A stretch of DNA of 64,000 nt from a virus. Positions within the stretch are counted from its first letter, which is position 1; every line of letters begins with the position of its first letter. This document shows, piece after piece, positions 12,630-36,929 of the stretch. The stretch lies in IMG/VR virus record IMGVR_UViG_3300023176_007894, positions 32,001-96,000 of that record; one strand, written 5' to 3'. The notes beneath the pieces are model-generated. The model ran no database searches and was not told the origin of the DNA. It saw only the letters and a program-made list of their open reading frames with translations. The position numbers were made by a program, and so were the translations under genes.

Positions 12630-12644
12630 GTGTATTTAAATCAA

Positions 12645-14261: not shown

Positions 14262-14280
14262 AAAAAAGAAAGATCTTATT

Positions 14281-14904
14281 ATGGCAAAAAGAATACTACC
14301 ATACCGAGACTACAGCGAACACGACGTTGTTAACTTGTTCTCATTGGAAATTGGAGGCTCGGACACGCTGTCGAGTTTCGTTACAACATCCAGTGGCAAG
14401 TGGGACTCAGGCGTTGTCGTTTCTGTGAGTGCGGGAGCTCTACCAGGTGATATCCCCCAACTTCGCGCATCGGCAGGAAATAATCTCAGAGATTATATGG
14501 GAGCTGATCAATCATCTGCGCATGTTGGATACAACGCATACCCGTACAACGGTATGACAGTAGCCCCTGCTGACGGATCCGGTCGTGCATTAGGAATCAC
14601 ACTTCGTGAAACCTTGGCATTCGACGAAAACGGAGAAAAAATGTTATATTATCCTCAAAAACTTGATGAATCTCAAGGAGTTCTTCCAGGTCAAACAGTT
14701 CCTGTTTTGACAAGGGGACTTGTCCTTTTGGGCGGAGATGCATTTAGTTCTGCTCCTGCTTTAGGTGCCGAGCTTGAAGTTTCTTCTACAGCTGGAAAGC
14801 TTGTTACTGCATCAACTGGAACAGTTGTTGGACATGTTGTGGCTATCGGAGAAGAGAGTGATAATTCTTCTAACAAAAAATATTTGTGCAAACTTAGCTT
14901 CTAA
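14281..14904 (+). CDS. Capsid decoration/cement protein (putative)
   Basis: Directly upstream of the major capsid gene; beta-rich (LGITL...VPVLTRG). Confidence 0.6.
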   Translation: MAKRILPYRDYSEHDVVNLFSLEIGGSDTLSSFVTTSSGKWDSGVVVSVSAGALPGDIPQLRASAGNNLRDYMGADQSSAHVGYNAYPYNGMTVAPADGSGRALGITLRETLAFDENGEKMLYYPQKLDESQGVLPGQTVPVLTRGLVLLGGDAFSSAPALGAELEVSSTAGKLVTASTGTVVGHVVAIGEESDNSSNKKYLCKLSF

Positions 14905-14921
14905 GAAAGGACAATAAAGAA

Positions 14922-16070
14922 ATGAAAATTACTCTTAAACCTACATCCGAGCAAGTCGAGCTTGTTAAAGCTATGGCTTCGAAAAATAGAGAAGTTGCAT
15001 ATGAAGCTCAAACAGCACTGGCTGAATTTATTGGTCCAGTATTGGCCGAAGTTGTAAACACAGCTCCTACGGTTAGCAATATGTTTACTTCTCTTCAGTT
15101 CAATGCAGACGAAAGTCCAAGCATTCCTTTGGATCTTTATCACGATATTACTGATGAAGACTACATCCAAGTATGGAGTCAATCTGTACCAGGAGGACTT
15201 CCTACCAACCAAGTTGCTCCATCGCAAAGCGAGCTTAAGTTCACAACTTATACTCTTGACAGCGCATTGAGCTTTGATAAGCGTTACGCTTCTCGTTCGA
15301 GACTTGATGTTGTTAGTAAAACATTTACCCGTATGGCTCAAGAAATTCTTCTCAAGCAAGAAAAAACTTCGGCCACTATGGTAATGACTGCTTTGGCTAA
15401 CGCTTCCACAAACAGCGAGCAACATGTTATCCGTTCTGCTCAAGCAGGAAGGTTCTTGCTTTCCGACCTCAACAAGCTGTTCACTAAATCCAAAAGGATT
15501 AATTCCGCTTGGAATGGTGGAACTCCAGCTGAAAGACGCGGTCGTGGAATCACAGATCTGCTTGTTTCGCCAGAGATTGTTGAAGAAATCAGAGGATTGG
15601 CTTACAACCCAATCAACACCAAAGGTGCTGATGGAAGTGCTCCATCTGGCAATACTAATGGTTTGGCTGCATCCGACAGCGTTCGTGACGCAGTTTTCAA
15701 TAGCGCAGGAATCCCAGAATTCTATGGAGTATCAATCCAAGAGTACAATGAAATGGGAGATGGCCAAGCATGGAATACTGTATTCTCTGCAGCCGCAGGC
15801 TCAACAACATATGCAGATAATTACTCTGTCGCCCAAAACGGTGGTGCAGCACAGGCAATTCAAGCCGGAGAAGAAATTCTTGTCGGTGTTGACTTGTCTC
15901 GCGAGTCGATGATTCGTGCAGTTGCTACAGACTCCGAAAATGGAGCAGAGTTTAATCTCGTCGCGGATGACCAGTTTGCAACTCGTCAGTCGAAAATCGG
16001 TTATTACGGATCCCTTGAAGAAGGCCGTATGATTATCGACGACAGGGTTCTTCTTGGACTTCTTGTTTAA
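14922..16070 (+). CDS. Major capsid protein (HK97 fold, putative)
   Basis: 382 aa; position after protease and decoration genes; AAAGGA RBS; strong terminator follows. Confidence 0.8.
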   Translation: MKITLKPTSEQVELVKAMASKNREVAYEAQTALAEFIGPVLAEVVNTAPTVSNMFTSLQFNADESPSIPLDLYHDITDEDYIQVWSQSVPGGLPTNQVAPSQSELKFTTYTLDSALSFDKRYASRSRLDVVSKTFTRMAQEILLKQEKTSATMVMTALANASTNSEQHVIRSAQAGRFLLSDLNKLFTKSKRINSAWNGGTPAERRGRGITDLLVSPEIVEEIRGLAYNPINTKGADGSAPSGNTNGLAASDSVRDAVFNSAGIPEFYGVSIQEYNEMGDGQAWNTVFSAAAGSTTYADNYSVAQNGGAAQAIQAGEEILVGVDLSRESMIRAVATDSENGAEFNLVADDQFATRQSKIGYYGSLEEGRMIIDDRVLLGLLV

Positions 16071-16094
16071 TTTTTAATTAAACCAAATCCCCTT

Positions 16095-16131
16095 AAATCC
16101 ACCCTGGGCAACTGGGGTGGATTTTTTATTT
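16095..16131 (+). terminator. Rho-independent terminator after the capsid operon
   Basis: aaatccaccctgg-gcaa-ctggggtggattt hairpin followed by a T-tract. Confidence 0.85.
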
Positions 16132-16177
16132 ACAAATGTTATTATAATGTGTACTAAAATAAAAGGAATAAGGTATT

Positions 16178-16594
16178 ATGGCAAATCAAAAAAAATCGCG
16201 CAAGACTTTGGCTTCGAAGGGCTCGGAAAAAGCTAGCACTCCAAAGCTTGAAGATCTTCAGCAAACTACAGGCAAAAGCTACGAGGATAAAGTAGCTAGA
16301 GCAAAAGAACTGGAAGAAATTCTAGGGATTCCTAAAATAAGCCCATTTAAAACTCATGATCGAGAAGTTTTTGCAAGCATGATCAAAGATATGAATTTAA
16401 CAGATTTACAGGCTTTCGCTGTAAAGGTGGGGATTTTTCCTTCTGGTAATAAAACAATTTTAAGAAATAAAATCAAAAGGGCTTTTGAGTCTAGTTTGGT
16501 TGGACAGGGAAGTGTCCAAGTGATGGGTGATCCAATTAAGTTGGACCCGTCCAATCCAGAACACAAGAAAGTTATTGACTATCTAGGAGGATAA
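16178..16594 (+). CDS. Hypothetical protein (head-associated?)
   Basis: 138 aa; GTGTA motif and SD-like sequence upstream. Confidence 0.65.
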   Translation: MANQKKSRKTLASKGSEKASTPKLEDLQQTTGKSYEDKVARAKELEEILGIPKISPFKTHDREVFASMIKDMNLTDLQAFAVKVGIFPSGNKTILRNKIKRAFESSLVGQGSVQVMGDPIKLDPSNPEHKKVIDYLGG

Positions 16595-16598
16595 AGTT

Positions 16599-17123
16599 AT
16601 GGCTCATGATCCTCATCCAGAAACAATTTTAGGTCAATTGGCATTAAAGATTTACGATGAAGAAATTGGCCAGTATACCCAAGGAACGGAAAGAACAACT
16701 GAAATTGTATTAATTTCTGGATGGCTAGAGGGTCATTTGGGCGAGCTTAATAATTTGATTTATACTTCTTTTAGTGGAGACAACCCGCAAGGCTTTTTAT
16801 TGGAAGAGCAAGCTATTATAAGGGAAATGTATGTTTCCGAATATAATCGAAAGAAAGAGAGGGCTGCCCTTCGAAGAATGGACGGCGAAGGAGATACCAT
16901 CAATTGGCAAACTATACAAGAAGGAGATTCTGTTATTAAAAGGCAAATTGATACATCAAATCCAACCCCAAAGCTCTACCATCAGGCATATCTTGCGTCA
17001 CAAGAAAGAATGAAAGAGCTAATATATGCTTATAACATGTATAAAGCAAGTCCAAGACAAATTGTTGGAAAAGATTCTGATGAAGCCCCAAGCATGACGG
17101 GCATTTATCAAAAAACTGTGTAA
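16599..17123 (+). CDS. Putative head-tail adaptor/completion protein
   Basis: Helical 174 aa protein with IQEGDSVIK motif; position after the capsid gene. Confidence 0.45.
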   Translation: MAHDPHPETILGQLALKIYDEEIGQYTQGTERTTEIVLISGWLEGHLGELNNLIYTSFSGDNPQGFLLEEQAIIREMYVSEYNRKKERAALRRMDGEGDTINWQTIQEGDSVIKRQIDTSNPTPKLYHQAYLASQERMKELIYAYNMYKASPRQIVGKDSDEAPSMTGIYQKTV

Positions 17124-17132
17124 ATATATTGT

Positions 17133-17648
17133 ATGGAAGAAAATGCTAACAATCAAGAATTAGAAAATACATCTAAAAGAATAAAATCCGAGCTATACCA
17201 TATTTGGAAAAAAGCAAAGAGACTGTTTGAACTAATCGGGCAAGACAGAATGCTTGAAGATTGGGTTCAAAAAAATATAAATTCTGCGCACAATAATTTA
17301 GATGAAGCTTTAAGGTTTGTTGAGTATGAAGAAATTTTTCCTCAGAAAAAAAATGAAGACGTTGATCCAGATGAAGGAAAAAATAATTTTCTTTCAAATC
17401 AAGACAAAAGGTATCCAGTTCCTGCCGAATCAGAAAACGGAGATCAATTTATCACTCGTTGCATATTAGATGCAAATATGAAAAAACGATACCCTGTCCA
17501 GTCTGATAGGTTCAACGCTTGTATGGTAATTTATACAGAAAATAAAAATAAACCTTCAGATACCGGAAATCCTGGAGAAAAATTCGAAGACCCTATGTCT
17601 TCAAAAGAGCCCGAAATTAAAGATCCGATTAAGCCAATTCTTCCTTAA
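17133..17648 (+). CDS. Modular hypothetical protein (LEDWVQ module plus P-P-E-F-RC module)
   Basis: Shares modules with ORFs 5978-6133 and 36874-38301. Confidence 0.65.
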   Translation: MEENANNQELENTSKRIKSELYHIWKKAKRLFELIGQDRMLEDWVQKNINSAHNNLDEALRFVEYEEIFPQKKNEDVDPDEGKNNFLSNQDKRYPVPAESENGDQFITRCILDANMKKRYPVQSDRFNACMVIYTENKNKPSDTGNPGEKFEDPMSSKEPEIKDPIKPILP

Positions 17649-20109
17649 TTGAATATTTTACCGAGCCCCCGCTAAAACCAAATGAAATAGTTTGATCGTG
17701 GGTTAATTTTTTCCCCAAAATTAGCTCCGCCAATTTATTTTCGATATGGGTCTCTATTAGCCTTTTCAGTGGTCTGGCGCCCATTTTTTCTTCAGAAGAA
17801 AGATCTATAATCATTTGCACAAAAGATGCAGTCATTTTTATGGATATATTCTTGTTGGATAATTTATCCTCAATTTTACTGATCTCTAATTTTACTATTT
17901 TTTTCAGGTCTTCTTTTTTGAATTCTTCGAATACAACAATATCTGTTAGTCTGTTTATGAATTCTGGCCTAAAGAAACTTTTTAATTCGTCTTTGATTAT
18001 ATTCTGAGGGCGATTTTCTTCTTGTTGCGAAAAACCTATGGCTTGTTTTGAAAGCTTTTCTCCTCCGACATTGCCTGTTAGTATAATTATACAATTATTA
18101 AAATAAACTTTTCGACCAGAGTTATCTGTCACAAAGCCTTCTTCTAAAATTTGTAATAATATGTTTATTACGTCTGGATGGGCTTTTTCTATTTCATCGA
18201 AGAGTACGACACTGTAGGGATTTTTTCTTACTCTTTCTGTTAATATACCCCCTTCTTCGTAACCTACATATCCTGGAGAGGCTCCTGTTAGCCTGCTTGC
18301 CGTAATTTTTTCAGAATATTCGCTCATATCTAATTGAATAAGATTTGAGGAGCTGCCATATATAAATTCAGATATGCATTTTGCGGTATATGTTTTTCCT
18401 GTTCCTGTTTTTCCAACAAGAAGGAAGCTTCCTACGGGCTTGTTTTTGTCTTTTAATCCTGACTTTGATCGAAGTATAGCTTGACTCATTTGTTCAAGTG
18501 CTTCTGATTGTCCAATAATCCTTGATTTAAGATTTTTGAATAACCCTAAAATCTTTTTAGAGTCTTTTGCGGACATTTCTGAAGCGGGAACTCCGGTTCT
18601 AGAGGATACAACTGCATAAATATCTTCCTTTGATACCTTGAATTTATTTTTGATTGTTTCATTGGCCCATTTTGTAATGACCTGATCGTATCTTTCTAAT
18701 AAAATAATTTGAGTATCTTCAATAATGCTGTAATCTTCATTTGTAGATTGCATAGTGGATTCTTTCATGGCTAACTTTTCAAGTTCTTTTTCTATGTTAA
18801 CAGCTTCTTGGGGTCTCTGTATATTTTTAATTTTAACTTTTGACCCAGCTTGGTCCATGATATCAATTGCTTTATCTGGAAATTGTTTATCTAATATATA
18901 TTTTTCAGATAGATCGATAATCAAATCTATGATTTCTTTAGAGTAAGATATGCTGTGGAAGCTTTCGTATTTTTTCTTTACTCCATTTAGTATTTTTCTT
19001 GTTTCTTCTTTAGTTGGCTCTTTTACTTTGATGGGTTGAAATCTTCTGTCCAGCGCTCCGTCTTTCATGATGCTTTTCTTGTACTCTTCTTGAGTGGTCG
19101 CTCCAATGCATTTAATTTCTCCTCTTGCAAGCAATGGCTTGAGTAGATTTGCTGCATCCATGCTACCCTCTGCGCTACCTGCGCCAACTAATGTATGTAT
19201 TTCATCTATAAATAAAATTATACTCTGGTTCTTTTTTACTTCCTCTATGATATTTTTAAGCCTCTCTTCGAATTGACCTCTATATTTTGTACCAGCTATT
19301 AGTGAGCCTAAATCCAATGAGAATATAATTTTCCCTAAAAGAAAGTCTGGGCACTCGTTATGTACTATTTTTTGAGCGAGACCTTCTACGATAGCTGTTT
19401 TTCCTACCCCTGGATCCCCAAGTAGAATTGGATTATTTTTGGTTCTTCTGCATAAAATTTCGCAGACGTCACTTATTTCTTGCGTTTTGCCAACTATGTT
19501 ATCGAATTTTCCCTGAGCTGCCTTTTCGCAGAAGTTGACTCCAAATTTGTCGAGTGTGGGCGTATTTGTAGATATTGAGCTAACTTTAATTGATTTTTTA
19601 GGGCTAGGCTTTTCTTGTACATTTCTTTCGTTAGAAATATGTAAATACTCTCTTACTTCTGCAATGACGTCGTCTTCCGAAGAGTTAAAAAGCCTAAAGT
19701 AAAATGGAACAGGAGAGTCTTCATATTTCAAGAGAGCCAATAGCATATGTTCTAGACCAACATATTCATGTCCAAGCTTATAGCTTATTGATGCGGCAAC
19801 TTTCAAAACCAAATGAAAGTGCTCGTCGTAAACGGGCTCATATGATTCATCAAATTTGTCAGAATTTTTCTCATCTAAGAATTGCTCTTTGTTTTGGCGC
19901 TCGAGGGATTCTATAATTTCTTCCTTTAATGATTTCTGGTCTATATTTAATAAATATAAAATCTCACTAAGTATTCCCGCGCTAAGTTTAACCATGCCGT
20001 AGAATAAATGTTCTAAGTTTACATAGTCGCTATAATACTCTCTTGCTATTTTTTTTGCTTCGTTGATTGCCTGTTGCGCTCTTGGCGTAAAGTTTGGCTT
20101 AGGTTTCAT
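17629..20109 (-). CDS. clpC: ClpC-type Hsp100 AAA+ ATPase
   Basis: Clp N domain; GDPGVGKT, FIDEIH, GKTGTGKT, LFDEIEKAHP, GARPL; IGF ClpP-docking loop; start at 20109 or 20115. Confidence 0.9.
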   Translation of the reverse strand: MKPKPNFTPRAQQAINEAKKIAREYYSDYVNLEHLFYGMVKLSAGILSEILYLLNIDQKSLKEEIIESLERQNKEQFLDEKNSDKFDESYEPVYDEHFHLVLKVAASISYKLGHEYVGLEHMLLALLKYEDSPVPFYFRLFNSSEDDVIAEVREYLHISNERNVQEKPSPKKSIKVSSISTNTPTLDKFGVNFCEKAAQGKFDNIVGKTQEISDVCEILCRRTKNNPILLGDPGVGKTAIVEGLAQKIVHNECPDFLLGKIIFSLDLGSLIAGTKYRGQFEERLKNIIEEVKKNQSIILFIDEIHTLVGAGSAEGSMDAANLLKPLLARGEIKCIGATTQEEYKKSIMKDGALDRRFQPIKVKEPTKEETRKILNGVKKKYESFHSISYSKEIIDLIIDLSEKYILDKQFPDKAIDIMDQAGSKVKIKNIQRPQEAVNIEKELEKLAMKESTMQSTNEDYSIIEDTQIILLERYDQVITKWANETIKNKFKVSKEDIYAVVSSRTGVPASEMSAKDSKKILGLFKNLKSRIIGQSEALEQMSQAILRSKSGLKDKNKPVGSFLLVGKTGTGKTYTAKCISEFIYGSSSNLIQLDMSEYSEKITASRLTGASPGYVGYEEGGILTERVRKNPYSVVLFDEIEKAHPDVINILLQILEEGFVTDNSGRKVYFNNCIIILTGNVGGEKLSKQAIGFSQQEENRPQNIIKDELKSFFRPEFINRLTDIVVFEEFKKEDLKKIVKLEISKIEDKLSNKNISIKMTASFVQMIIDLSSEEKMGARPLKRLIETHIENKLAELILGKKLTHDQTISFGFSGGSVKYSIKEELA

Positions 20110-20125
20110 TGTCATAATTTTACAC

Positions 20126-22687
20126 TTATTTCACCTCGGACATCTTCATATAAATTTTTTCGTCCAAAATTTTTATAGAATCAATAAATAATATATCTTC
20201 ACTTTTTCGTCCATATGTGACTACAATATTCTTTTTTGATGGGGTTTTGTTTGTCTGTTTTTCAAAATATCTATCATAGAAATTACCTCTTCTTGAGTTT
20301 AGGAGCATGGCATCATATCTTCCGCTTTCATCAGATATAGAAAGCTTCATGTATTTATTACCATTTCGGGAAGTTCGCTTTATGCAGTCTTCAACAACTC
20401 CGATAAATCTGCCTTTTTCATCAAGATCCATGATCTTTAGATCTGACGAGTCTTTTAGTGAGGAGCTCCCGTCAGAAAAGCAGGTTTTCAATTTCGAACT
20501 ATGACTGTAGCCTAAAAGCTGAGTTTCAAAATACCAATTTGCGAAATGCTCATATTGTCTATTTTTGTCATAAATGCTTTTGTAGACATCGTACTTTTTC
20601 TTAAATGTTTTAAATCTAGATTCCTTCATTACTGGCTTGCCGTCATCAGCAATTAGATTTTCATTTTTTGCATCGACTATACAGTTGAGGAGCTTATACT
20701 CATATTTTTCTCCCAATTGAACAAAATTTCTTTTTTCTCTTTCTGTAAGTAGATTAAAAGACTGCGCCTCTAGTACCATCAGTGACCTGTTTTTCCCTTT
20801 ACTGCCTAATGCTCCGGCTTGAATTAATGCAGAAAGAACTCCTATATTGAGCCCTGCCTGTTTCGCGGAGAGAAATATATCATATTTGGTTGGGGTTTCA
20901 GAAGACCTAAAGTCTCTAAGTGCTTGCAGGGATTTTTCGCTAACTCCTTTGATGCTGTTTAGTCCAAACCTAATGTCTTTTCCTTCTATGGAGAAATCCA
21001 TTTTAGAATTTGCGAGGTCTGGAGATAATAATTTAATATTAAAGGAGTCTAATTCTTTTGAAATTTTACTTATTTCTTCTTGTGGGGATGGCTCATATTT
21101 GGTCATCTTCAATAAAGATAGAAAAAATTGTTGTGGATGATTAAATTTAAGGTATGCTGTCCATGCAGCAAGAACAGAATAACTAAGGGAGTGTGATTTA
21201 TTGAAAGAATAGTTTGCGCTATCCTCTGCGACGCTCCATAATATTGTTCCAATGTCTGGACTCAGTCCTCGCTCACTTACTTTTTGTTCAATCTTGGCTT
21301 TCCAGGCAGGCATTTGATCCACCTTTTTCTTTCCAACAATGCGCCGAAGCTGCTCTGCTTCATCAAGCGTGAATCCAACCTTCACCGCCATTTGCATAAG
21401 CTGCTCTTGATAGAGTGGAATTCCACCTGTATAATCTAATACATCCGAGAAAAACTCATGAATAACTTGGGCTTCTTCGGTTTCCACATAGGTTGCATAA
21501 TTGTCTAAAAATTCGAGAGCTCCTGGGCGACCAATCGCTACAACCGCACTAAGCTGCTCGAGGTTTTGTGGCTTGATTTTCTTGCAAACCCTGTAGTTGG
21601 TATCAGATTCTAATTGAAACAATCCGTGAGGTGCTCTTAGGGCCTGTAATGGCTTGAATACATCTGCGTTATGAAGATCAATGTCATTGCAATCAATTCC
21701 AAGGCTTTTGCATACATCATAAATCACACTCAAAGTGCGCAATCCTAGAATATCAAATTTTACCATCAGCTCCGATACCCAATTCATGTCGTATCCTGTC
21801 ACCAATGTTCCATCATTTGATGTTTGAATAGGGCAAATGTCCGTCATTGTATCAAACGAAATCGCGATTCCGCTTGGGTGAACACCTGTGTTTTTATTTA
21901 GCCCTTCAAGTTTCAATGCAATATTAAATACTTCTGGGTTTTGCGCGGCCCAATCTGTAAACTTTTCGCTTTCTTCAATAGCGTTGCGCAAAGGCACTAC
22001 CACTCCAAAACGTTTTGGGATTGTGTCACTAACTTCGTTTACTTGCTGCTCTGTAAATTCCCCAACAATCTTGCCGCATTCCTTCACGCAAAGCTTTCCG
22101 CTGAGAGTGTTTAGCGTTAGTATCTTTGCGGTTCTGGCGGGATGCTTGCGTTCGATATAATCAATAACTTCTGCGCGGCGTTCGTAAGCGATATCGTTAT
22201 CCACGTCTGCAAGTAAACTGCCATCAAGATATGTGATTCCATCTTGTTCGATCTTGCGAGCCCTGCTTTTAGAAACGAATCGTTCAAAGAATAGATTATA
22301 TTCCACAGGATCAACATTTGTTACTCCGATTAAATAGAGTACAAGAGATCCTGCGGCACTACCACGACCCGGCCCAGTGGGAATATCGTTTTCATGACAA
22401 AAATTAAGAATATCCCAGTTTAAAAGAATATAATCAATAAAACCAAGTTCTTCCAGAATGGCGAGCTCTGATTTTGCGCGATCAAAGTATTCTTTCTTGT
22501 TATCAAACTTATCGATTCCGCGATCATAGACGCCCTTGTGGCAGAGTTTGCGAAGAAACTCGTAGTTGCTCACATCTGGAGAGCACTTAAGCATTTTATA
22601 ATACTTTTCTTCGATTTTAATGTTAGGCAATCGAACGCCTGGGGGAACACATCCCTCGTAACTTTTAAATTCTTCGATAAAACTCAT
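20126..22687 (-). CDS. dnaE: DNA polymerase III alpha catalytic subunit lacking the PHP domain
   Basis: GPGRGSAAGSL, FERF, DVDND, HPSG, KFDILGL, YQEQLM, YSFNKSH; C-terminal OB fold; ATG 22687 overlaps the upstream stop. Confidence 0.92.
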   Translation of the reverse strand: MSFIEEFKSYEGCVPPGVRLPNIKIEEKYYKMLKCSPDVSNYEFLRKLCHKGVYDRGIDKFDNKKEYFDRAKSELAILEELGFIDYILLNWDILNFCHENDIPTGPGRGSAAGSLVLYLIGVTNVDPVEYNLFFERFVSKSRARKIEQDGITYLDGSLLADVDNDIAYERRAEVIDYIERKHPARTAKILTLNTLSGKLCVKECGKIVGEFTEQQVNEVSDTIPKRFGVVVPLRNAIEESEKFTDWAAQNPEVFNIALKLEGLNKNTGVHPSGIAISFDTMTDICPIQTSNDGTLVTGYDMNWVSELMVKFDILGLRTLSVIYDVCKSLGIDCNDIDLHNADVFKPLQALRAPHGLFQLESDTNYRVCKKIKPQNLEQLSAVVAIGRPGALEFLDNYATYVETEEAQVIHEFFSDVLDYTGGIPLYQEQLMQMAVKVGFTLDEAEQLRRIVGKKKVDQMPAWKAKIEQKVSERGLSPDIGTILWSVAEDSANYSFNKSHSLSYSVLAAWTAYLKFNHPQQFFLSLLKMTKYEPSPQEEISKISKELDSFNIKLLSPDLANSKMDFSIEGKDIRFGLNSIKGVSEKSLQALRDFRSSETPTKYDIFLSAKQAGLNIGVLSALIQAGALGSKGKNRSLMVLEAQSFNLLTEREKRNFVQLGEKYEYKLLNCIVDAKNENLIADDGKPVMKESRFKTFKKKYDVYKSIYDKNRQYEHFANWYFETQLLGYSHSSKLKTCFSDGSSSLKDSSDLKIMDLDEKGRFIGVVEDCIKRTSRNGNKYMKLSISDESGRYDAMLLNSRRGNFYDRYFEKQTNKTPSKKNIVVTYGRKSEDILFIDSIKILDEKIYMKMSEVK

Positions 22688-27471: not shown

Positions 27472-28485
27472 ATGAATGATAAAACAGGAGAACTTCTCAC
27501 AAACAATATCGCTGGTGTAAATAGGATCTTACCTCATAAACACAAATTTGCATGGGATTTATTTTTAAAAAGTTGCGCAAACAATTGGATGCCTACTGAG
27601 ATCAGTATGCAAAATGATATTAAACAATGGAAAAATGATGAAATTTCAGAGGATGAAAAATTACTTGTTAAACGTTGTCTTGGATTTTTTGCTGGAAGTG
27701 AGTCTTTGGTTGGTAATAATCTTTTGCTTTCTGCCTTTAAATATGTCACGGACGCTGAGTGCCGCCAGTACATCTTGCGTCAAGCTTTTGAAGAGAGTCT
27801 TCACAACCTTACGGTAGTATATGTTTGCGACAGTTTAGACTTAGATATCGAAGAGGTTTTTGCTGCTTACGAAACCATACCGAGCATCAAAGCAAAGGAT
27901 GATTTCTTGATGAGTATAACCAATGATATTAGCAGGCAGGATTTTAATCCCCATACAAAAACAGGAAAACAAGAAATCTTAAGAAACTTTTTAACATATT
28001 GGATTGTCTGCGAAGGAACATTTTTCTTTAGCGGGTTTGCAATGCTCTTGGCTCTCGGAAGACAAAACAAACTTCAGGGAATTTCTGATCAGATTAAATA
28101 TACCTTGAGAGACGAAAGTTCTCATATCGCATTTGGAACATATTTAATTAATACATTAATCGAGCAAAATCCATCTATATGGACAAAAGCAATTCAGGAA
28201 GAATTTGTAGAGCACATGAAAAAAGCCGTAGAGCTCGAAATAGAATATGCTCATGATGTGCTGCCCACAGGTATTCTTGGTCTAAACGCCGATATGTTTG
28301 TTGATTATATGCATTATATTGGTAATCGCAGGCTCGAAGCAATTGGATTGGATTACAGATTTCCAAGCGACAAAAATCCGTTTCCTTGGCTAAGTGAAGT
28401 TGTAGATGTTCAGGCTATGGGTAACTTTTTTGAACGCAGGGTTCGAGAATACCAGCAAAGTGGCGCTTTAGAAGACGATTTTTAA
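27472..28485 (+). CDS. nrdB: Ribonucleotide reductase beta subunit with class Ic-like (R2c) signatures
   Basis: W-PTEI, FFAGSESLVGNN, EESLHNLTV, EGTFFFSGF, RDESSH, NFFERRVREY. Confidence 0.92.
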   Translation: MNDKTGELLTNNIAGVNRILPHKHKFAWDLFLKSCANNWMPTEISMQNDIKQWKNDEISEDEKLLVKRCLGFFAGSESLVGNNLLLSAFKYVTDAECRQYILRQAFEESLHNLTVVYVCDSLDLDIEEVFAAYETIPSIKAKDDFLMSITNDISRQDFNPHTKTGKQEILRNFLTYWIVCEGTFFFSGFAMLLALGRQNKLQGISDQIKYTLRDESSHIAFGTYLINTLIEQNPSIWTKAIQEEFVEHMKKAVELEIEYAHDVLPTGILGLNADMFVDYMHYIGNRRLEAIGLDYRFPSDKNPFPWLSEVVDVQAMGNFFERRVREYQQSGALEDDF

Positions 28486-28489
28486 ATTA

Positions 28490-29761
28490 TTAAAGCAAGC
28501 TATACAATGGAGGCTCTCCATTGGAAATTTTAAAAGGTCTGCCGCTAGGAGAAAATAAAGTTTTAGATAAGCTTAATCCCATAGCATAAGCAATAGTTGC
28601 ATTAATAGATTCTATGCCAACTCCATTTTCCTCAACATAATGTCCACGCTTATCGGATTGCCCATATACTTGTCCGCCTTTAATTCCTCCTCCTGCAAAG
28701 AGCGCACTAAAAGAAGATGGATGATGATCTCTACCGTTTCTTCCCGATTTAATCTCTGGAGTTCTTCCAAATTCGCTAGCTACAACAACCATTGTGTCAT
28801 TAAGTAGCCCTCTTGTATTTAAATCTTCGAGGAGCGCACTTAACCCTGAATCTAAGGTTGTAGCTTTGTCTTCTAGTGATCCAAAAACATCATTATGCAT
28901 GTCCCATCCTCCATAAACAACCTCGACAAATCTCACTTTACTCTCTACTAATCTGCGAGCGAGCAAACAGCCTTGTCCGAAATTATTTTGTCCATATTTT
29001 TCTCTAATGGATTCTGGTTCTTTAGTTAAATCAAATGCATCAAGATCTTTGCTCTTCATCAGTTTGATTGCATTATCGTAAAGATCGGAGTATGCTCGAA
29101 TTTGTTTTTGAGGAAAAGATTTTCCGAAAGATTGATTAAATGATTTTGCAATATCAGTTCTTTGTTTATATGTTTCTTCGTCAAGATATGAGCTTTTTTT
29201 AATATTTTGAATACCTGCATTAGGGTTGCCTAATGGAAGTGGTCCATATTTGCTCTCTAAAAATCCTGCCCCTAAAATTCCGCTTCCACCATTAATTTTA
29301 ACATTATCTGGAAGAGTAAGGTTCAGTTTTTGAGACATTCTGCTAACCCAGCTGCCCATGCTAGGATGAATAATTGTTCCTCGTTTTTGGTAAGAGGTGT
29401 GAAGTAAATAATTAGCTTGCTCGTGCGCACCTTGGTTTGTGTTTATTGATCTAACTAGTGAAGCTAAATGCATTTGCTTAGATGTTTTAGGTAACCAGTG
29501 ACCAAGCTGAATTCCGTCTGCAGAGGTATTAATAGCATTAGTTTCTCCCATAACGTCTTTGTTTTCGGGTTTTGGGTCAAATGTATCTATGTGGGTCATA
29601 CCTCCAGCCATGTATAAAAATATAATATGCCTTGCCGTTGGTGTCCTTTTGGGTTGCTCTGATACTCCAAGCAGTTCTGAAGCGCTAAAAATTGCATTAA
29701 CTCCGAGTAGAGATCCAGCTAGTTGCTTTGCAAAAATTCTTCGTGAAGATTGATTATTCAT
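28490..29761 (-). CDS. DUF1501-family protein with Tat signal
   Basis: SRRIF signal; IFLYMAGGMTHIDTFDPKP, GCLLARRLVE, GGWDMH, SEFGRTP, GRDHHP, GGGIKGG. Confidence 0.9.
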   Translation of the reverse strand: MNNQSSRRIFAKQLAGSLLGVNAIFSASELLGVSEQPKRTPTARHIIFLYMAGGMTHIDTFDPKPENKDVMGETNAINTSADGIQLGHWLPKTSKQMHLASLVRSINTNQGAHEQANYLLHTSYQKRGTIIHPSMGSWVSRMSQKLNLTLPDNVKINGGSGILGAGFLESKYGPLPLGNPNAGIQNIKKSSYLDEETYKQRTDIAKSFNQSFGKSFPQKQIRAYSDLYDNAIKLMKSKDLDAFDLTKEPESIREKYGQNNFGQGCLLARRLVESKVRFVEVVYGGWDMHNDVFGSLEDKATTLDSGLSALLEDLNTRGLLNDTMVVVASEFGRTPEIKSGRNGRDHHPSSFSALFAGGGIKGGQVYGQSDKRGHYVEENGVGIESINATIAYAMGLSLSKTLFSPSGRPFKISNGEPPLYSLL

Positions 29762-29775
29762 ATAAAGGTATACAC

Positions 29776-31053
29776 TTATTTGATTAATTCTTCAATGACT
29801 CTGCCTCCGTCAACAATTTCCATAGGTCTATCACCAGGAGCCATCAACTCTTTATCTGCATTTATTCCAATTTGATTGTAAACTGTTTTTGCATAATCCA
29901 TTGGTGAAACGGGATTATCTTCTACGGTGGTTGCAAAAGCATCACTAGATCCATAAACAAAGCCTTGTTTGATTCCTCCTCCGGCAAGAACGCTACTGAA
30001 AACTCTGGGCCAATGGTCTCGGCCAGCATCTTTATTAATTTTAGGAGTTCTTCCAAATTCACTATTCACCATCACTAGGGTGCTCTCGAGAAGACCTCGA
30101 TCATCTAAATCAGAAATAAGAGATGCTAGCGCTTGGTCGAGAATTGAACCCTGCGTGCTGAATGCGTTTTCTATATTTTGATGATGATCCCAGCCTCCAT
30201 AGGTTAATGTTACCAATCTGACTCCTGCCTCAACAAGCCTTCTTGCCAAAAGCATTCTCATGCCAGCTTGATTTTTGCCATATTTTTCTTTAATTGACTC
30301 GCTTTCTTTTGATATATCAAAGGCTTCTCTAGCTTTAGGGCTGCTTATCATTTGGTATGCATTTTGATAAAATGTATCCATTGAAGATAATGCATCACTT
30401 TTTTCGAAAGAATTAAAATCTGATTCTATCATCTGTAAAAGACTTCTTCTTGAAGAAAATCTATTAAAGTCAATTCCTCCTGGAAGCTCTAGGTCTCTGA
30501 CTTTAAAGTTAGAGTTGGCGGGGTCGCTTCCAAGGCTAAAGGGAGAATATCTAGAGCTTAGATAACCAGAGCCTGCATACTGATTGGGCTGATTAGGAAT
30601 GCAAACGTAAGGTGGTAAATTTTCTCTGCCTCCTAATTCGTGAGATATAACAGAACCATAACTTGGATACTGTATCGCTGGGCTAGGCTTGTGGCCATTG
30701 AACATATTATGCGTGCCTCTTTCATGCGCTGCTTCTCCATGGGTTAGGCTTCTTACTACAGATATTTTATCTGCAATGTTGGCCATGTTTTTCATATTTT
30801 CGCTAAATTGAATACCTGGAATTTTTGTATCAATTGCCGAGAATGGTCCTCTGTATTCAAGCGGAGCATATGGTTTAGGATCCCAAGATTCTTGATGCGC
30901 CATTCCTCCTGGTAGATATATATGTATAATTGATTTTGCAGGCCCATCTATTGTTGGGTAATATTTTGCTTTTGCAATAGATTCTTGTTCAAGTAAATAT
31001 GGAAGTGAAAGAATGCCTGCGCTTCCTATTTTAATAAAGTTTTTTCTATTCAT
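29776..31053 (-). CDS. DUF1501-family protein with Tat-like signal (NRKNFIK)
   Basis: IHIYLPGGMAHQESWDPKP, LLARRLVEAGV, GGWDHH, SEFGRTP, GRDHWP. Confidence 0.9.
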   Translation of the reverse strand: MNRKNFIKIGSAGILSLPYLLEQESIAKAKYYPTIDGPAKSIIHIYLPGGMAHQESWDPKPYAPLEYRGPFSAIDTKIPGIQFSENMKNMANIADKISVVRSLTHGEAAHERGTHNMFNGHKPSPAIQYPSYGSVISHELGGRENLPPYVCIPNQPNQYAGSGYLSSRYSPFSLGSDPANSNFKVRDLELPGGIDFNRFSSRRSLLQMIESDFNSFEKSDALSSMDTFYQNAYQMISSPKAREAFDISKESESIKEKYGKNQAGMRMLLARRLVEAGVRLVTLTYGGWDHHQNIENAFSTQGSILDQALASLISDLDDRGLLESTLVMVNSEFGRTPKINKDAGRDHWPRVFSSVLAGGGIKQGFVYGSSDAFATTVEDNPVSPMDYAKTVYNQIGINADKELMAPGDRPMEIVDGGRVIEELIK

Positions 31054-33086
31054 TGTATAAATATAAATTCATGAGTGTTTAATAATATCCAAGATACATG
31101 TTTAAATCCATTTTTTTTATCTATAATGGGCTTTAACTCTTTTAGCTCTTTTGGGTTTGGTTGACGACCTAATATTGATAAGAATGCACTAACAATCTGA
31201 TCGTTGATTGTTTTTTCTCCTTCAATAAATTTCATAAAATCTGCATTTTTATTGTTTAGTATATTTTTTTCAACAAAACCGTTTAATAAATTTAAGACTT
31301 GAGTTGTGTTTGGCTCAAAGTTGCTGTTTTCGATTTGCTCTTTATCGCTTCCCCCAAATTGTCTTATCAGGTGTCCTCCTGGGGCTGGATATGGTAAGTA
31401 GCTACTTCGTATTAAGGATTTGTCTTTAAATTTTTTATTATCATTTTTTTCTTCTGATAATATCTGTAATAAATTTCGATTTTCTGGATGCATTTCGACA
31501 AGTCTTTTGAAGTCGTTATATATTGCTGTAGAGTTTAAGTCTTTGTATCTATTGTAAATGATTGAGTAGTCTTGATTATTTTGAATATAGAGTCTTTCTT
31601 TGGAGTCGATATTATTATATACTAGCGTAACTAAAGAGTCCCAGATTTGTTCGCCAGTCATTCTGCGCAATGGGGGTCCGGCGAAATGAAAATTTTCAAT
31701 ACTGGCGAAGTCTTCCTTGAAGCTTTTGCGCGAAAAAAGATCTGTGCTTAAAAGTATCCTTTTGAATTCTTTGGTGTCAAAGTCTAGGCTTATTATCAAT
31801 TTTTCAATGAACTTTAATAACTCTGGGTTGCTTGCAATTGTTTCATCGGTCATGGTGTCGATTGGTTCAATTAATCCAATTCCGAAAATTCTTTTCCATA
31901 ATCTGTTGCTAATAACTGTTGCAAATCTTGGATTGTCTTCGCTTGTGATCCAATTCGCAAAAATAATTCTGCTATTATCATTATCTTTTGGTAATGAAAT
32001 ATTTGGAGTAAATATTGATTTAGCGTAAACCAAATCTCCTGGATCGCCATCGCTCTCTGCAAAATCTTTAGGAAGTTTGATTTTCCCTGTGCCGTTGTTC
32101 TCTATTCCAAATTGCAGGGAATCTCTAACTTGGTTTCTCCAGTTATTAAAAAGTCCTGATTTGGGATCTCCATCTGTTTGTATTGCCCTGCTTAATTTAC
32201 CGATTTTTTTACTTTGTTCGTTAATTCTTACTGCCCCAATGCCTGATGTAAAAGCCGTCATTTCATAAAATTGTTTTTGAGTCCATTTATCAAACGGGTG
32301 ATTGTGGCACATTGCGCACTGAAGTCTTGTTCCTAGGAATATTCTAATTGTATGCGATAAATGATCTGGCTGCATGCCTCTGTCTCTGAGGTAAAAACTG
32401 ATTGCGGCACTATCATTTCCGCCGTACAGTTCACCGTTACTAGCTATCAAATCTCTGACCATTTCGTCATATGGCTGATTTGATTCTAGACTCCTGCGAA
32501 TCCATTGTCTGTATGCAACCCCGAGATTAATGTTGGTTCCGTCTAGTCTGTCTTTTATTCTTAGCAGGTCGCTTAACCAGTTTAATTCATTATTTATGTA
32601 TCCAGGGTGATCTAATAATTCTTTTATTAATTTTTGTTTTTTCTTCGGGTCTCTACTCTCGGTATACTTAGTGAGTTCGTTTTGAGTTGGAATGCGCCCT
32701 AATATGGTTAAATATATTCTTCTTGTAAATTCATAATCATCTGTTTTTTGCGTTTTAGAAACTTTGAGCGTTTTGAGTTTTGCATTTACTAAGGAATCAA
32801 TGTGGCTTGCAAAAATTGCTATAGATTTTTCATTAACAGGGGTTGGTAATTTTTTTAGGCCGCCATGTCTATTTGTGGCATGGTAAAGCTCAACTAAATT
32901 TTGAGTTTCAAGCGTAAAAAAACTAATCGGTACTCGAAAAAGCTGTAGGTCGCTTTCTTTCTTTAATAATACATGTGTCGCGTTCGCTTCGATAATTTGT
33001 GCCTTTATTACGCGTCCGTCTTTGTATACTATATCTCCGCCGAAACAAAGCAGGGAAGAGGTTAAAAATAATAATAAATGTTTCAT
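31050..33086 (-). CDS. DUF1549 (PSCyt2)/DUF1553 (PSD1) protein with signal peptide
   Basis: Signal MKHLLLFLTSSLLCFG; RRIYLTILGRIPT, FLGTRLQCAMCHNHPFDKWTQKQFY, NRLWKRIFGIGLIEP, RRMTGEQIWDSL, WILLNTHEF. Confidence 0.9.
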   Translation of the reverse strand: MKHLLLFLTSSLLCFGGDIVYKDGRVIKAQIIEANATHVLLKKESDLQLFRVPISFFTLETQNLVELYHATNRHGGLKKLPTPVNEKSIAIFASHIDSLVNAKLKTLKVSKTQKTDDYEFTRRIYLTILGRIPTQNELTKYTESRDPKKKQKLIKELLDHPGYINNELNWLSDLLRIKDRLDGTNINLGVAYRQWIRRSLESNQPYDEMVRDLIASNGELYGGNDSAAISFYLRDRGMQPDHLSHTIRIFLGTRLQCAMCHNHPFDKWTQKQFYEMTAFTSGIGAVRINEQSKKIGKLSRAIQTDGDPKSGLFNNWRNQVRDSLQFGIENNGTGKIKLPKDFAESDGDPGDLVYAKSIFTPNISLPKDNDNSRIIFANWITSEDNPRFATVISNRLWKRIFGIGLIEPIDTMTDETIASNPELLKFIEKLIISLDFDTKEFKRILLSTDLFSRKSFKEDFASIENFHFAGPPLRRMTGEQIWDSLVTLVYNNIDSKERLYIQNNQDYSIIYNRYKDLNSTAIYNDFKRLVEMHPENRNLLQILSEEKNDNKKFKDKSLIRSSYLPYPAPGGHLIRQFGGSDKEQIENSNFEPNTTQVLNLLNGFVEKNILNNKNADFMKFIEGEKTINDQIVSAFLSILGRQPNPKELKELKPIIDKKNGFKHVSWILLNTHEFIFIQ

Positions 33087-33087
33087 G

Positions 33088-34752
33088 TTATTGTTTGATA
33101 TGTTTTCCGTCTGTAAGTCCTGCGCTGTATGCATTTAAATCTATGCCAACTTTTTTACTTGCATCGAAAATTAATTTTAAATAATACTCTGGCGATCCAT
33201 TGTCTTGCGCATGATATTCATCGCTAAAAACAATTCCGCTTTTGTTTTTTATTTCTGATCTATTTTCCAAGAAATGGTATTTTTTGAGATTATCGTCTTT
33301 GAGGTAACCTTGTCCTTGCCAAGCGTTTTCGACAAATTCTTTAAAAGATCTTGAAAATACTTTGTCTCCAACTTGAAACATAATTCCTCTATATAAGCCT
33401 TTATGTGAATCCAGTTTTGATTTAAGTTGGTTAAGATCTTTTGTATAATTTTCTTCGGGGTTCTTGTTGAAATTTGGCAAATGGTAGGAAGGTTGAGCTT
33501 CATCTTGAAAAACAAAAGCCAAAACATTGTCTTTGTCTGCAGCTTGCGAAAAAAATCGAAGCGTTCTTTCTCCTGAGCTATCTATTATGCTGACTCTTTT
33601 AGAATAAAGAGATTCGTCATTGTTATAATATGGAAGAAGCGCATCTTTAAGTATTGTGTTTTTCATAATCTCGAGCTGCTTTCTTGTTTTTAATATACTT
33701 CCACTACCATCGACATGCATCATGATGTGAAGCTGGCCATTCTTTGGCAGGTCTTTGTAGTAGACTCCACCATTGCCCCCACCTAATCCGTAGCCATTTT
33801 TTTTCCCAATTCCTAATTTTTCAATGATATATCCTTGTGTTAGTCCAGCTGCACCTCCTGCACCAGCTCCTCCTATTAATCCTCCGACTCCACTTGATTC
33901 ATATAGCTCCGAAGTTTGATCATTGTATCCAGAACCAATGCCTCCTAGTGCAGGAACAGCTTTGCCGTTTGACATGGCTTCACCTATTCCTGCGCTTAAC
34001 CCAGCTCCTGATCCTGCGCCTGCGCCTATTGCAGAAGAGCCGATTCCTGCCCCTACTCCCTGACTTGGGTAATTATATGCATAAAGTTCTCCAGCCTTTG
34101 ACGATTTAGAATTTTTTATTTCTCCACTATTTAATTTAAAATCTCCGAGCTCTGAATTATCTTGGTCGGGAACTAAATTCATTTGTGAAAAATCAACACC
34201 CGCACTATCTTCGTTATTTCTTTTTTTATTTAAATTGTTTTGGGCTATGTTTTTATCTTCAAGGCCAATATCTTTGAGCCTCCTATTTAGTAGTCCAGGA
34301 TCGGCTTCGATTGACTCTATAGAATTGCCAACCACATCATGACGACGATGGCCAAAATTAACATTATCTCTAGTATGAATTGAATTTTCATTTAAAATTG
34401 TATTGTTGGTTCTTAAATTTATATCATCAGTATATACAGTGCCACTATAATCTTTTGTGTTTATTGTTGATATTGCTCTGCTGTTATATACATGTTCTTC
34501 ATTTGCCTGTTTTTCTCGTATGGATCCATGTAAATAATCTTTATATATAATATCTTTATTTTCATGAATTATTCTATCAACATATACTATTTCTTTGGAA
34601 AAATTTGATTCGTGCTTTGATTGATCTCTCTCGACAAAATCAATTGATTCGTTAGGGGATTTTGTAATTAATGAAATTATCAGTATAAGAAATAAGATAA
34701 AAATAATGTATGCAGAAATAAGATTTGAGAGCGCGACGTTTTTGTTTTTCAT
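33088..34752 (-). CDS. Membrane-anchored protein with Gly-rich linker and C-terminal vWA-like domain
   Basis: N-terminal TM; GAGAG-rich region; HVDGSGS (MIDAS DxSxS) and FVFQDE. Confidence 0.65.
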   Translation of the reverse strand: MKNKNVALSNLISAYIIFILFLILIISLITKSPNESIDFVERDQSKHESNFSKEIVYVDRIIHENKDIIYKDYLHGSIREKQANEEHVYNSRAISTINTKDYSGTVYTDDINLRTNNTILNENSIHTRDNVNFGHRRHDVVGNSIESIEADPGLLNRRLKDIGLEDKNIAQNNLNKKRNNEDSAGVDFSQMNLVPDQDNSELGDFKLNSGEIKNSKSSKAGELYAYNYPSQGVGAGIGSSAIGAGAGSGAGLSAGIGEAMSNGKAVPALGGIGSGYNDQTSELYESSGVGGLIGGAGAGGAAGLTQGYIIEKLGIGKKNGYGLGGGNGGVYYKDLPKNGQLHIMMHVDGSGSILKTRKQLEIMKNTILKDALLPYYNNDESLYSKRVSIIDSSGERTLRFFSQAADKDNVLAFVFQDEAQPSYHLPNFNKNPEENYTKDLNQLKSKLDSHKGLYRGIMFQVGDKVFSRSFKEFVENAWQGQGYLKDDNLKKYHFLENRSEIKNKSGIVFSDEYHAQDNGSPEYYLKLIFDASKKVGIDLNAYSAGLTDGKHIKQ

Positions 34753-34788
34753 GATTTAAATGGTAGCTTTCGGAACAATTATTTACAC

Positions 34789-34814
34789 AAAAAAGCCGCC
34801 CGAAGGCGGCTTTT
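34789..34814 (-). terminator. Rho-independent terminator (cUUCGg loop), possibly bidirectional
   Basis: Minus strand aaaagccgcc-ttcg-ggcggctttttt, directly followed by GTGTA. Confidence 0.85.
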
Positions 34815-34836: not shown

Positions 34837-35076
34837 CTATCCCTTATCAGAGCTAGGCTTTAAGAGCGCTACAAGCAGAAGGAGCGTAATGACCCCTGCA
34901 AGTGAAGCGCCTTCTCCAACGAACCCTAGTACGACATCCTGAAGGTTGCCGATGACGTTAATAGGAGCTCCTTCGCCAAAGACGACTTGAGCTACGACCA
35001 ATAGGCCGATAATCGACAGGAGAACACTTGTGACTCCTCCTGCGTACGTTTTAATCGTATCGATTGTATTTTTCAT
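34837..35076 (-). CDS. Small two-TM membrane protein
   Basis: 79 aa with two hydrophobic helices. Confidence 0.75.
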   Translation of the reverse strand: MKNTIDTIKTYAGGVTSVLLSIIGLLVVAQVVFGEGAPINVIGNLQDVVLGFVGEGASLAGVITLLLLVALLKPSSDKG

Positions 35077-35080
35077 AAAT

Positions 35081-35737
35081 TTAGAAGTTTACAGAGATTC
35101 CAAGACCAATAACGTATTCTTCAGAAATGAGATCTGAGTCAACTCTTGTAAGGTCAAAAGAAGCTACTGCATTTTCAGAAATTTTTCTGGAAACACCAAG
35201 TCCTGTAGAATAGTATGTTTCGTTTTGAGAATTAGAGAGATCTGTATTTCCTACAGAGCCTCCGATTGCCAAATCTCCAACACCTACATCAATAGAGTGG
35301 GATAGACCAAGCTCATAGGTATACAACGAATCTTCTAGATTGCGGAAGACGGATAATTTTGGCGATAGAAATGTGTTAATTTCAAAACTGATCTCTGCCT
35401 CCAATAAAGTATTACCCGGAACATCTTCCACGTGATTTAATCCAAGATAAGCTTTAAAAAGTTCATTAGCAAAGCTTTTAGAGGCTCCTCCTGCGATAAT
35501 ATACGAGTCAGATCCGCTGCTGGATACTGATTGATTTGTAAATGCTCCAACAGAATAGTTTAGACCCAGCACTTCTCCATTTACTCCAACCGAAGCCTGA
35601 ATTGCTTCTTCTGAATTTAGGGCTCCTCGAAAAAAGTAGTCTGAGGCGTACCGAGTGCTTAGCGAATAATTTTCTGCCGAAGCGACGTTAATAAAAACTC
35701 CCAAAAGGGTAGTAAGGATTAGTTTTGTTGTCTTCAT
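35081..35737 (-). CDS. Outer-membrane beta-barrel protein (TIGR02001/TorF-like putative porin)
   Basis: Signal peptide ending ASA; YASDYFFRG motif; alternating beta strands; C-terminal Phe (GLGISVNF). Confidence 0.75.
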   Translation of the reverse strand: MKTTKLILTTLLGVFINVASAENYSLSTRYASDYFFRGALNSEEAIQASVGVNGEVLGLNYSVGAFTNQSVSSSGSDSYIIAGGASKSFANELFKAYLGLNHVEDVPGNTLLEAEISFEINTFLSPKLSVFRNLEDSLYTYELGLSHSIDVGVGDLAIGGSVGNTDLSNSQNETYYSTGLGVSRKISENAVASFDLTRVDSDLISEEYVIGLGISVNF

Positions 35738-36269: not shown

Positions 36270-36929
36270 TTAATTTTTAAATAAAAACGGTCTCCACTCT
36301 TCTCGTTCCTTTTGAAAGGCGTGAAAAAAATGCCAAGGAGTGCAGGGTTTTAATTCTTCACCTTTGTAGTTTTTATATGGATATAATGCCGCTTTTTTTG
36401 AATTGCAGCTATGGCATGTTATTGTTACATTGAAACTATCTTTTGTTCCGCCCATGCTTTTGGGGTATATGTGTTCTATACTCATATCTTTTATCGTTTT
36501 CTTTTCTCCGCAAATCTGGCAGCGACCTTTATATCTATCATAAAGATACCTTAGGTTCGGTTTTTCTTTTGTTTGGTAAACCCATTTTGCTGTAGTCAAT
36601 AAAATTGTTGGTACTGGATATAGCCTGTTGCATGCATTTAGGAATGGTTGAGACTCGTAATATGTTGAGCGATTTGGGTTTATCCATTCTTCCCATGTTA
36701 GAGGTTCACCACTTGCGCATAATACTTTCACTGTGTTAAGTTTATCTTGGTTTGATCCACAGGATATTAATTTCCTTACTCCTTCTTTGGCCGTTGTTAT
36801 ATTTATGGGCGTCCAGAAGTGAGATAAAATTAAAACAATTCTATCCTTGCTACTGCAACAATATGAAGAAGAATTAATTATTTTTCTTTTTGTCGTGATG
36901 ACCGCCTTTTGAGGAATTAGGCTTTTCAT
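36270..36929 (-). CDS. HNH endonuclease (start uncertain)
   Basis: RCQICG...SIEHIYPKSMGG...NVTITCHSCNSKK. Confidence 0.85.
   Translation of the reverse strand: MKSLIPQKAVITTKRKIINSSSYCCSSKDRIVLILSHFWTPINITTAKEGVRKLISCGSNQDKLNTVKVLCASGEPLTWEEWINPNRSTYYESQPFLNACNRLYPVPTILLTTAKWVYQTKEKPNLRYLYDRYKGRCQICGEKKTIKDMSIEHIYPKSMGGTKDSFNVTITCHSCNSKKAALYPYKNYKGEELKPCTPWHFFHAFQKEREEWRPFLFKN

Follow-up and report, generated by a model that had tools for sequence, protein, structure and literature searches.

The 64,000-nt window analysed here is one strand of positions 32,001-96,000 of the IMG/VR virus record IMGVR_UViG_3300023176_007894. Positions 28490-34752 are filled by four tightly packed minus-strand open reading frames (ORFs), which encode a transmembrane protein with a putative vWA-like domain (TM-vWA), a PSCyt2/PSD1 (DUF1549/DUF1553) protein and two DUF1501 proteins, DUF1501-A and DUF1501-B. 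This module is a real host-derived cassette carried by a phage and not a four-part machine. The overall explanation that fits best, its proposed function included, is probably that of three separable units that are co-transcribed here. The first is the host-derived pair of PSCyt2/PSD1 and DUF1501-B, which diverges as one two-gene cassette. The second is DUF1501-A, an extra copy from a phage-only clade that is found without a partner and elsewhere in the genomes of relatives. The third is TM-vWA, a backbone gene of the phage lineage that is independent of the pair. The pair would have been acquired once, long ago, from Verrucomicrobiota-type bacteria, and would now be accessory, residing in a variable island that separates the replication blocks in a widespread lineage of aquatic phages with contigs of up to about 180-230 kb.

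Phage residence and ancestry of the module genes

The structural genes of the window comprise a large terminase, a prohead-protease-like protein, a baseplate-like protein and two tail-fibre proteins. They are accompanied by a DnaE divided into three genes (PHP, exonuclease and core), a ClpC-like ATPase, a class I ribonucleotide reductase (RNR), DnaB, a primase, a PD-(D/E)XK nuclease, a RecA-like protein and an HNH endonuclease, as well as by glycan genes encoding a GDP-mannose dehydratase, a 999-aa multi-glycosyltransferase and a DUF2827 protein. No GenBank phage has a terminase more than about 28% identical to that of the window, which indicates that the lineage is uncultivated. tRNA genes, sought in the window as a clue to the host, were not found.

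The module genes are phage-borne, host-derived auxiliary genes. In IMG/VR, 15 loci with homologues of DUF1501 or PSCyt2/PSD1 and 26 with homologues of TM-vWA were recovered, nearly all of them with the same replication backbone at 45-93% protein identity, and more than 25 independent contigs of different metagenomes show the same genes enclosed by the same phage neighbours. Hundreds of further homologue clusters (45-61% identity) are present in the protein database, from Tara, JGI, ENA and Logan assemblies with contigs of up to 190-232 kb, and one relative (G005) is a 211,117-bp record rated as 100% complete by CheckV. The GC content of the phage copies is 0.35-0.42, as against 0.57-0.59 in cellular homologues, and that of the module (0.35-0.39) equals that of the phage. 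The module is subject to purifying selection: between close phage pairs the ratio of nonsynonymous to synonymous substitutions (dN/dS) falls within 0.00-0.16 (0.00-0.06 for DUF1501-B, 0.045-0.09 for PSCyt2/PSD1 and 0.09-0.16 for TM-vWA), and the same comparison gives 0.005-0.03 for the RNR genes.

A bacterial fragment wrongly joined to phage DNA, through host contamination or chimeric assembly, would agree with the fact that these families are characteristically bacterial and that none of them occurs in PHROGs or in 50,697 GenBank phage records, in which tblastn detected no real homologue of the module proteins. NCBIfam, like PHROGs, returned nothing for any of the four proteins, and no published description of phage-borne DUF1501/PSCyt2-PSD1 copies was found. 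Such an artefact is nevertheless extremely improbable, given a GC content 0.2 below that of cellular homologues, the recurrence of the same phage neighbours in independent contigs, the grouping of the phage copies in clades of their own and the presence of a phage regulatory motif (GTGTA) inside the module. A first, sequence-only reading had regarded the genes as domesticated by the phage and not as contamination, a view borne out by phage-like composition, conserved synteny, the phage clade, purifying selection and an ancestry in the Planctomycetes-Verrucomicrobia-Chlamydiae (PVC) group. Instead of near-identity to a host locus and a lack of phage homologues, identity to cellular copies does not exceed 52% and phage homologues are many. 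In one relative (L035), NrdA, DnaE and DUF1501-B are broken into several frameshifted pieces, which suggests a low-quality assembly and not pseudogenes.

The origin of the genes was traced with a DUF1501 profile scan of 185,579 species genomes, which returned at least 598 cellular relatives. The best 80 of these matches, which were the ones examined, all belong to Verrucomicrobiota or Planctomycetota and are 41-52% identical to DUF1501-B. In a quick IQ-TREE phylogeny of 112 DUF1501 sequences, the DUF1501-B copies of phages fall into a single clade (13 rows, SH-like approximate likelihood ratio test 99), which lies inside a group dominated by Verrucomicrobiota and has Akkermansiaceae/Haloferula as its weakly supported sister (85). 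This clade contains two old sub-clades, type I and type II, which are respectively 71-76% and 52-54% identical to the window copy. The split between 38-40% and 58-60% identity is due to these two old alleles within a single phage clade; an unusually fast evolution of the pair was considered and rejected, as within a type dN/dS is as low as that of RNR. DUF1501-A groups apart from it, in a phage-only clade (12 phage rows, support 99) on a deep branch, and the named cellular sequences closest to it are DUF1501 proteins from Planctomycetota and Bryobacteraceae (41-46%). The DUF1501 copy of two relatives (L012 and L013) was placed separately, next to Planctomycetota.

Association of the four genes in cells and phages

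A PSCyt2/PSD1 partner lies in the flank of 73 of the 80 cellular DUF1501 loci, and a TM-vWA homologue in none. Among phages, the distances of PSCyt2/PSD1 correlate with those of DUF1501-B (r 0.76-0.79), and the distances of the vWA domain correlate with those of either pair member at r 0.14-0.30 only. Identity of the vWA domain to the window copy is likewise 0.62-0.74 irrespective of whether a type I pair, a type II pair, a lone DUF1501 gene or none of them is nearby. TM-vWA holds a fixed position in the backbone, at the edge of the variable island with RNR, outer membrane protein (OMP)-like, small transmembrane and DUF5824-type genes, and its neighbours vary: TM-vWA is separated from the pair genes by NrdAB in L034, L035 and L037, and lies downstream of the pair in L014, L025 and L027. 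Five relatives (L018, L021, L032, L038 and L039) carry TM-vWA with no DUF1501 or PSCyt2/PSD1 gene within 10 kb, and the complete 211-kb genome G005 encodes TM-vWA and one solitary DUF1501 but no PSD1, in a search whose positive controls detected PSD1. DUF1501-A, in turn, is flanked by the RecA-like and DnaB genes in L004 and L005, and lies elsewhere in L030 and after TM-vWA in L025.

The sequence-only reading had seen in the four genes a complete periplasmic machine. In its fullest form, this idea envisages a single dedicated assembly in which the metal ion-dependent adhesion site (MIDAS) of TM-vWA anchors the PSCyt2/PSD1-DUF1501 enzyme or enzymes to the inner membrane. The operon-like packing in the window, the predicted extracytoplasmic location of all four products and the invariance of the full candidate MIDAS residue set speak in its favour, as does the order in nine relatives (L017, L019, L020, L022, L024, L026, L028, L029 and L033), in which TM-vWA is directly followed by PSCyt2/PSD1, mostly with short gaps. 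Such a machine is nonetheless improbable in view of the lack of TM-vWA beside the 80 cellular pairs, its occurrence without the pair in at least five relatives and in the complete genome, the NrdAB or other genes that intervene in L034, L035, L037 and L014, the indifference of vWA identity to the presence or type of the pair, and the placement of DUF1501-A in a solitary clade and elsewhere in three relatives; the claim of a complete four-gene machine is not supported. A related possibility, also rather unlikely, is that the backbone TM-vWA was recruited as a membrane dock for PSCyt2/PSD1-DUF1501 and DUF1501-A, giving a tethered periplasmic ester-hydrolase complex that reprograms the PVC envelope or nutrient uptake. 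If this were true, the docked complex would constitute a minimal system able to reveal what the DUF1501/PSCyt family does. Two observations tell against the explanation by three separable units. The co-divergence test comprises 10-11 related genomes whose pairs are not independent, and PSCyt2/PSD1 comes immediately after TM-vWA in about 10 of the 27 phages, so that a functional link between TM-vWA and the pair is possible in those phages where they adjoin.

The proteins and their proposed function

The PSCyt2/PSD1 gene (31050..33134, minus strand) gives above-cut-off Pfam matches to PSCyt2 (PF07583, 138.7 bits) followed by PSD1 (PF07587, 113.4 bits). Its homologues align from residue 17 only, which makes Met17 at 33086, one base past the TM-vWA stop, the probable true start; this residue opens a Sec-type signal peptide. 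This peptide is followed by a small SH3/Sm-like barrel (residues 30-89) and a large, mostly helical body. At the end of PSCyt2 lies the motif C273-A-x-C276-H277, which all 60 phage and PVC sequences share. The structure model is confident (pLDDT 89.8), and a Foldseek search with it against the Protein Data Bank (PDB) gave no match at E <= 0.001, which leaves the body, as modelled, without a solved structural relative. Over the CxxCH region the model did not match any cytochrome, and the haem-type motif alone was seen.

Both DUF1501 proteins, DUF1501-A (29776..31053, minus strand, 425 aa, the solitary-type paralogue) and DUF1501-B (28490..29761, minus strand, 423 aa, the partner-type paralogue), match PF07394 at 366 and 389 bits, far above the cut-off of 27 (E 3e-109 and 5e-116), and cover positions 1-381 and 1-390 of the 390 in the profile. 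Judged by eye, the N-terminus of DUF1501-B (SRRIFAK) is a consensus twin-arginine translocation (Tat) signal and that of DUF1501-A (NRKNFIK) a Tat-like variant with RK, in a clade where 13 of 14 members have RR. A polar core is conserved in both copies and consists of His57, Asp62, Ser105, His113, Asp287-x-His289, Glu330, Arg333 and Arg344-Asp-His346. DUF1501-B keeps all positions that are at least 93% conserved in 77 cellular sequences, and DUF1501-A departs from the cellular core only at changes shared by its whole clade (D59E, T60S, Y118H, H132Y and W138V). Ser105 is replaced by Thr only, and this happens in the type II phage sub-clade of DUF1501-B, a pattern that suits a hydroxyl nucleophile or a metal ligand. 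Type II copies (L017, L025, L027, L028 and L037) carry D62G, S105T and S352T at sites that are 94-100% conserved in the 77 cellular proteins. In L037 and L035 this type of DUF1501 gene has no PSCyt2/PSD1 gene beside it.

Single-protein sequence searches of the PDB returned nothing significant for the module proteins. At the profile level, 17 of the 19 weak PDB matches of DUF1501 are sulfatases or LtaS (best E 0.046). They align at the helix-strand element that precedes the metal-binding SDHG motif, and these weak alignments place Glu330 where sulfatases have an Asp ligand; a Phosphodiest match (E 0.0096) stayed under the cut-off. The formylglycine motif C/S-x-P-x-R is absent from both proteins, which excludes them from the S1 sulfatases. 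The likeness to alkaline phosphatases and sulfatases suggested earlier hence stands at the level of the superfamily and fails for formylglycine sulfatases.

TM-vWA (33088..34752, minus strand, 554 aa), the product of the first gene, begins with a signal-anchor or transmembrane helix (residues 4-29, from an alignment of 31 homologues and an AlphaFold2 (AF2) model). A long disordered region modelled at low confidence follows, enclosing a highly conserved Gly/Ala-rich stretch (about 221-307), and the C-terminal alpha/beta domain (330-541) is modelled confidently. In the same alignment D348-x-S350-x-S352, T397 and D417 never vary, which is what a MIDAS would require, and ESM features point weakly to VWA clusters. 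No Pfam match at E <= 0.01 (vWA models included), no PHROG and no NCBIfam match were obtained, a sequence search of the PDB found nothing, and Foldseek with the AF2 model against the PDB gave nothing at E <= 0.001. The C-terminal domain is thus called vWA-like with moderate confidence. A profile search of the PDB matched only the Gly-rich helices of ATP-synthase c-subunits (E 0.02) and was dismissed as compositional. MIDAS-bearing vWA domains occur in pilus adhesins, integrin beta-I, NorD and BatA/BatB-type membrane proteins; TM-vWA differs from these systems in that Pfam vWA models fail on it, no MoxR-type ATPase partner was seen near it, and it has a conserved Gly/Ala-rich region of its own. 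This supposed linker (window 33829-34090) is among the best-conserved parts of the protein, with dozens of invariant Gly and Ala residues, and may be a glycine-zipper membrane hairpin instead. The family seems confined to this phage lineage.

It has been established that in Planctomycetota, Verrucomicrobiota and Lentisphaerota the genes for DUF1501 and PSCyt1/PSCyt2/PSD1 make up a conserved module (Kamneva et al. 2012, PMC3542564; He et al. 2017, PMC5615132), and in this published work the function of the family is called unknown. The phage pair resembles that module in that the same two Pfam families are adjacent and co-oriented in the window, in the cellular loci and in phage relatives, that DUF1501 carries a candidate twin-arginine signal and its partner a signal peptide and CxxCH, that the near-invariant residues are kept, and that the closest cellular relatives are PVC bacteria. 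It differs in being phage-carried, single-copy, AT-rich and at most 52% identical to any cellular copy, and in sharing a presumed transcription unit with a TM-vWA gene found only in phages and with a further DUF1501 from another clade. The partner is also minimal, lacking PSCyt1, a carbohydrate-binding module (CBM), Big_2 and WD40, and has an N-terminal SH3/Sm-like barrel instead. With S1 sulfatases and the LtaS/alkaline-phosphatase superfamily, DUF1501 shares the weak matches before SDHG and to Phosphodiest; apart from the missing formylglycine motif, it differs in having Gly-Gly where sulfatases have the strand-1 Asp-Asp, and in its own set of conserved residues listed above.

As to function, a periplasmic metal-dependent ester hydrolase with a haem-motif partner, serving nutrient supply or envelope modification, is put forward tentatively. 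During infection the proteins would be exported to the host periplasm, PSCyt2/PSD1 via Sec and DUF1501 via Tat. DUF1501 would act as the hydrolase, probably on phospho- or sulfo-esters and with Ser105 as the candidate nucleophile, and the haem-motif PSCyt2/PSD1 would assist it. The benefit to the phage could be either more phosphorus or sulphur for heavy DNA synthesis or modified envelope glycans. PhoD and PhoX are Tat-exported, and cyanophages carry pstS and phoA as auxiliary metabolic genes for nutrient acquisition. Like the cyanophage genes, the module genes are host-derived, non-structural, flanked by phage genes and under purifying selection, and plausibly raise the nutrient supply of the host; unlike them, their products are predicted to be exported by Tat or Sec, the presumed source and host is PVC and not cyanobacterial, and the activity is putative. 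Several points count against this proposal. The PDB profile matches of DUF1501 are individually not significant, the export signals were assessed by inspection alone and that of DUF1501-A reads RK, not RR, and neither the literature nor the PDB yielded an experiment or structure that defines the function of DUF1501 or PSCyt2/PSD1. The PVC host assignment, moreover, is indirect, and the link to phosphorus or sulphur supply is a guess from enzyme superfamily, Tat export and position beside RNR.

A purely envelope-directed role, in which the exported enzymes remove or change ester groups on glycans of the periplasm or cell surface, with superinfection exclusion as a possible outcome and without feeding metabolism, is not very likely. 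It gains from the richness of the lineage in glycan-modifying genes, such as those of the window, and from the OMP-like and small membrane-protein genes just upstream of the module. It also gains from a 116-kb relative (L014), in which the pair lies amid genes (1006-2010 and 11776-20202) for UDP-galactopyranose mutase, a Branch/sulfotransferase fusion, a second sulfotransferase, a pyruvyl transferase and several eukaryote-like glycosyltransferases. The sulfotransferase association is limited to that one relative, however, and the mixed flanks of five cellular loci from the sister group (DnaJ, MscS, type II secretion system ATPase, Mur ligase, histidine kinase, HupE/UreJ) gave no functional hint and no conserved glycan context.

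In Planctomycetota and Verrucomicrobiota, DUF1501 and PSCyt/PSD1 rank with the largest orphan families, each genome holding dozens of paralogues, and this redundancy hampers genetics in those hosts. One strongly selected, minimal phage pair and a lone DUF1501 offer a compact, expressible version for biochemistry and structure, and the PSCyt2/PSD1 fold is of interest in itself owing to its high-confidence model without a solved structural relative. The findings also suggest that a widespread lineage of large aquatic phages infects PVC bacteria, and that the activity of the pair limits phage replication.

Gene junctions, the GTGTA motif and neighbouring genes

The four packed, co-oriented genes were described earlier with the motifs QCAMCHNH, SRRIF, NRKNF and DGSGS, all of which are present. 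The stop of PSCyt2/PSD1 and the start of DUF1501-A overlap by 4 nt, and a 14-nt gap that holds a GTGTA motif (29771..29775, minus strand) at the typical -14 position separates DUF1501-A from DUF1501-B. The latter is convergent with nrdB, with 4 nt between the stop codons (28485-28490) and no terminator between them. A second GTGTA (34784..34788, minus strand) lies 36 nt upstream of the TM-vWA start codon, a spacing that is atypical compared with the usual -14/-15.

GTGTA is depleted in the window overall (39 copies on both strands against about 137 expected). It occurs no more than 40 nt upstream of 14 of the 54 window genes, mostly at -14/-15, where 0.59 would be expected; this 24-fold enrichment upholds its earlier description as a phage motif. 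In relatives, 6 of 18 PSCyt2/PSD1 loci have it upstream of that gene, where about 0.4 would be expected. The genes with GTGTA upstream include the baseplate-like and tail-fibre genes and no replication genes, which would fit a non-early class of promoter. Among the 14 window sites (e.g. 2536, 5430, 6389, 7090, 29771 and 50633), the motif stands 14-15 nt before the start codon of many genes that have no Shine-Dalgarno sequence; near-leaderless transcripts would be implied if GTGTA were a -10-like element.

Just beyond the module head, a GC-rich hairpin (GCCGCC-TTCG-GGCGGC, 34795..34810, minus strand) followed by a T-run (34789-34794) was read directly from the sequence. It is likely the terminator of the upstream operon of OMP-like and small transmembrane genes and would mark the head of the module. 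It is missing from the consensus terminator scan, probably owing to A/T bases at its flanks that lengthen the stem. The OMP-like gene and a 79-aa gene with two transmembrane segments (34837-35737, minus strand) precede the module, and their pairing is kept in seven relatives (L017, L019, L028, L034, L035, L014 and L025). The small protein is 91-94% identical among relatives whose neighbouring proteins are 35-60% identical, and appears unusually constrained. A perfect TTGACA-17-TATAAT promoter sequence is found at 35782-35754. Finally, the HNH endonuclease gene (36270-36929) overlaps the end of the DUF5824-type gene and is found in few relatives only (L017 and L035), which gives it the look of a mobile insertion.

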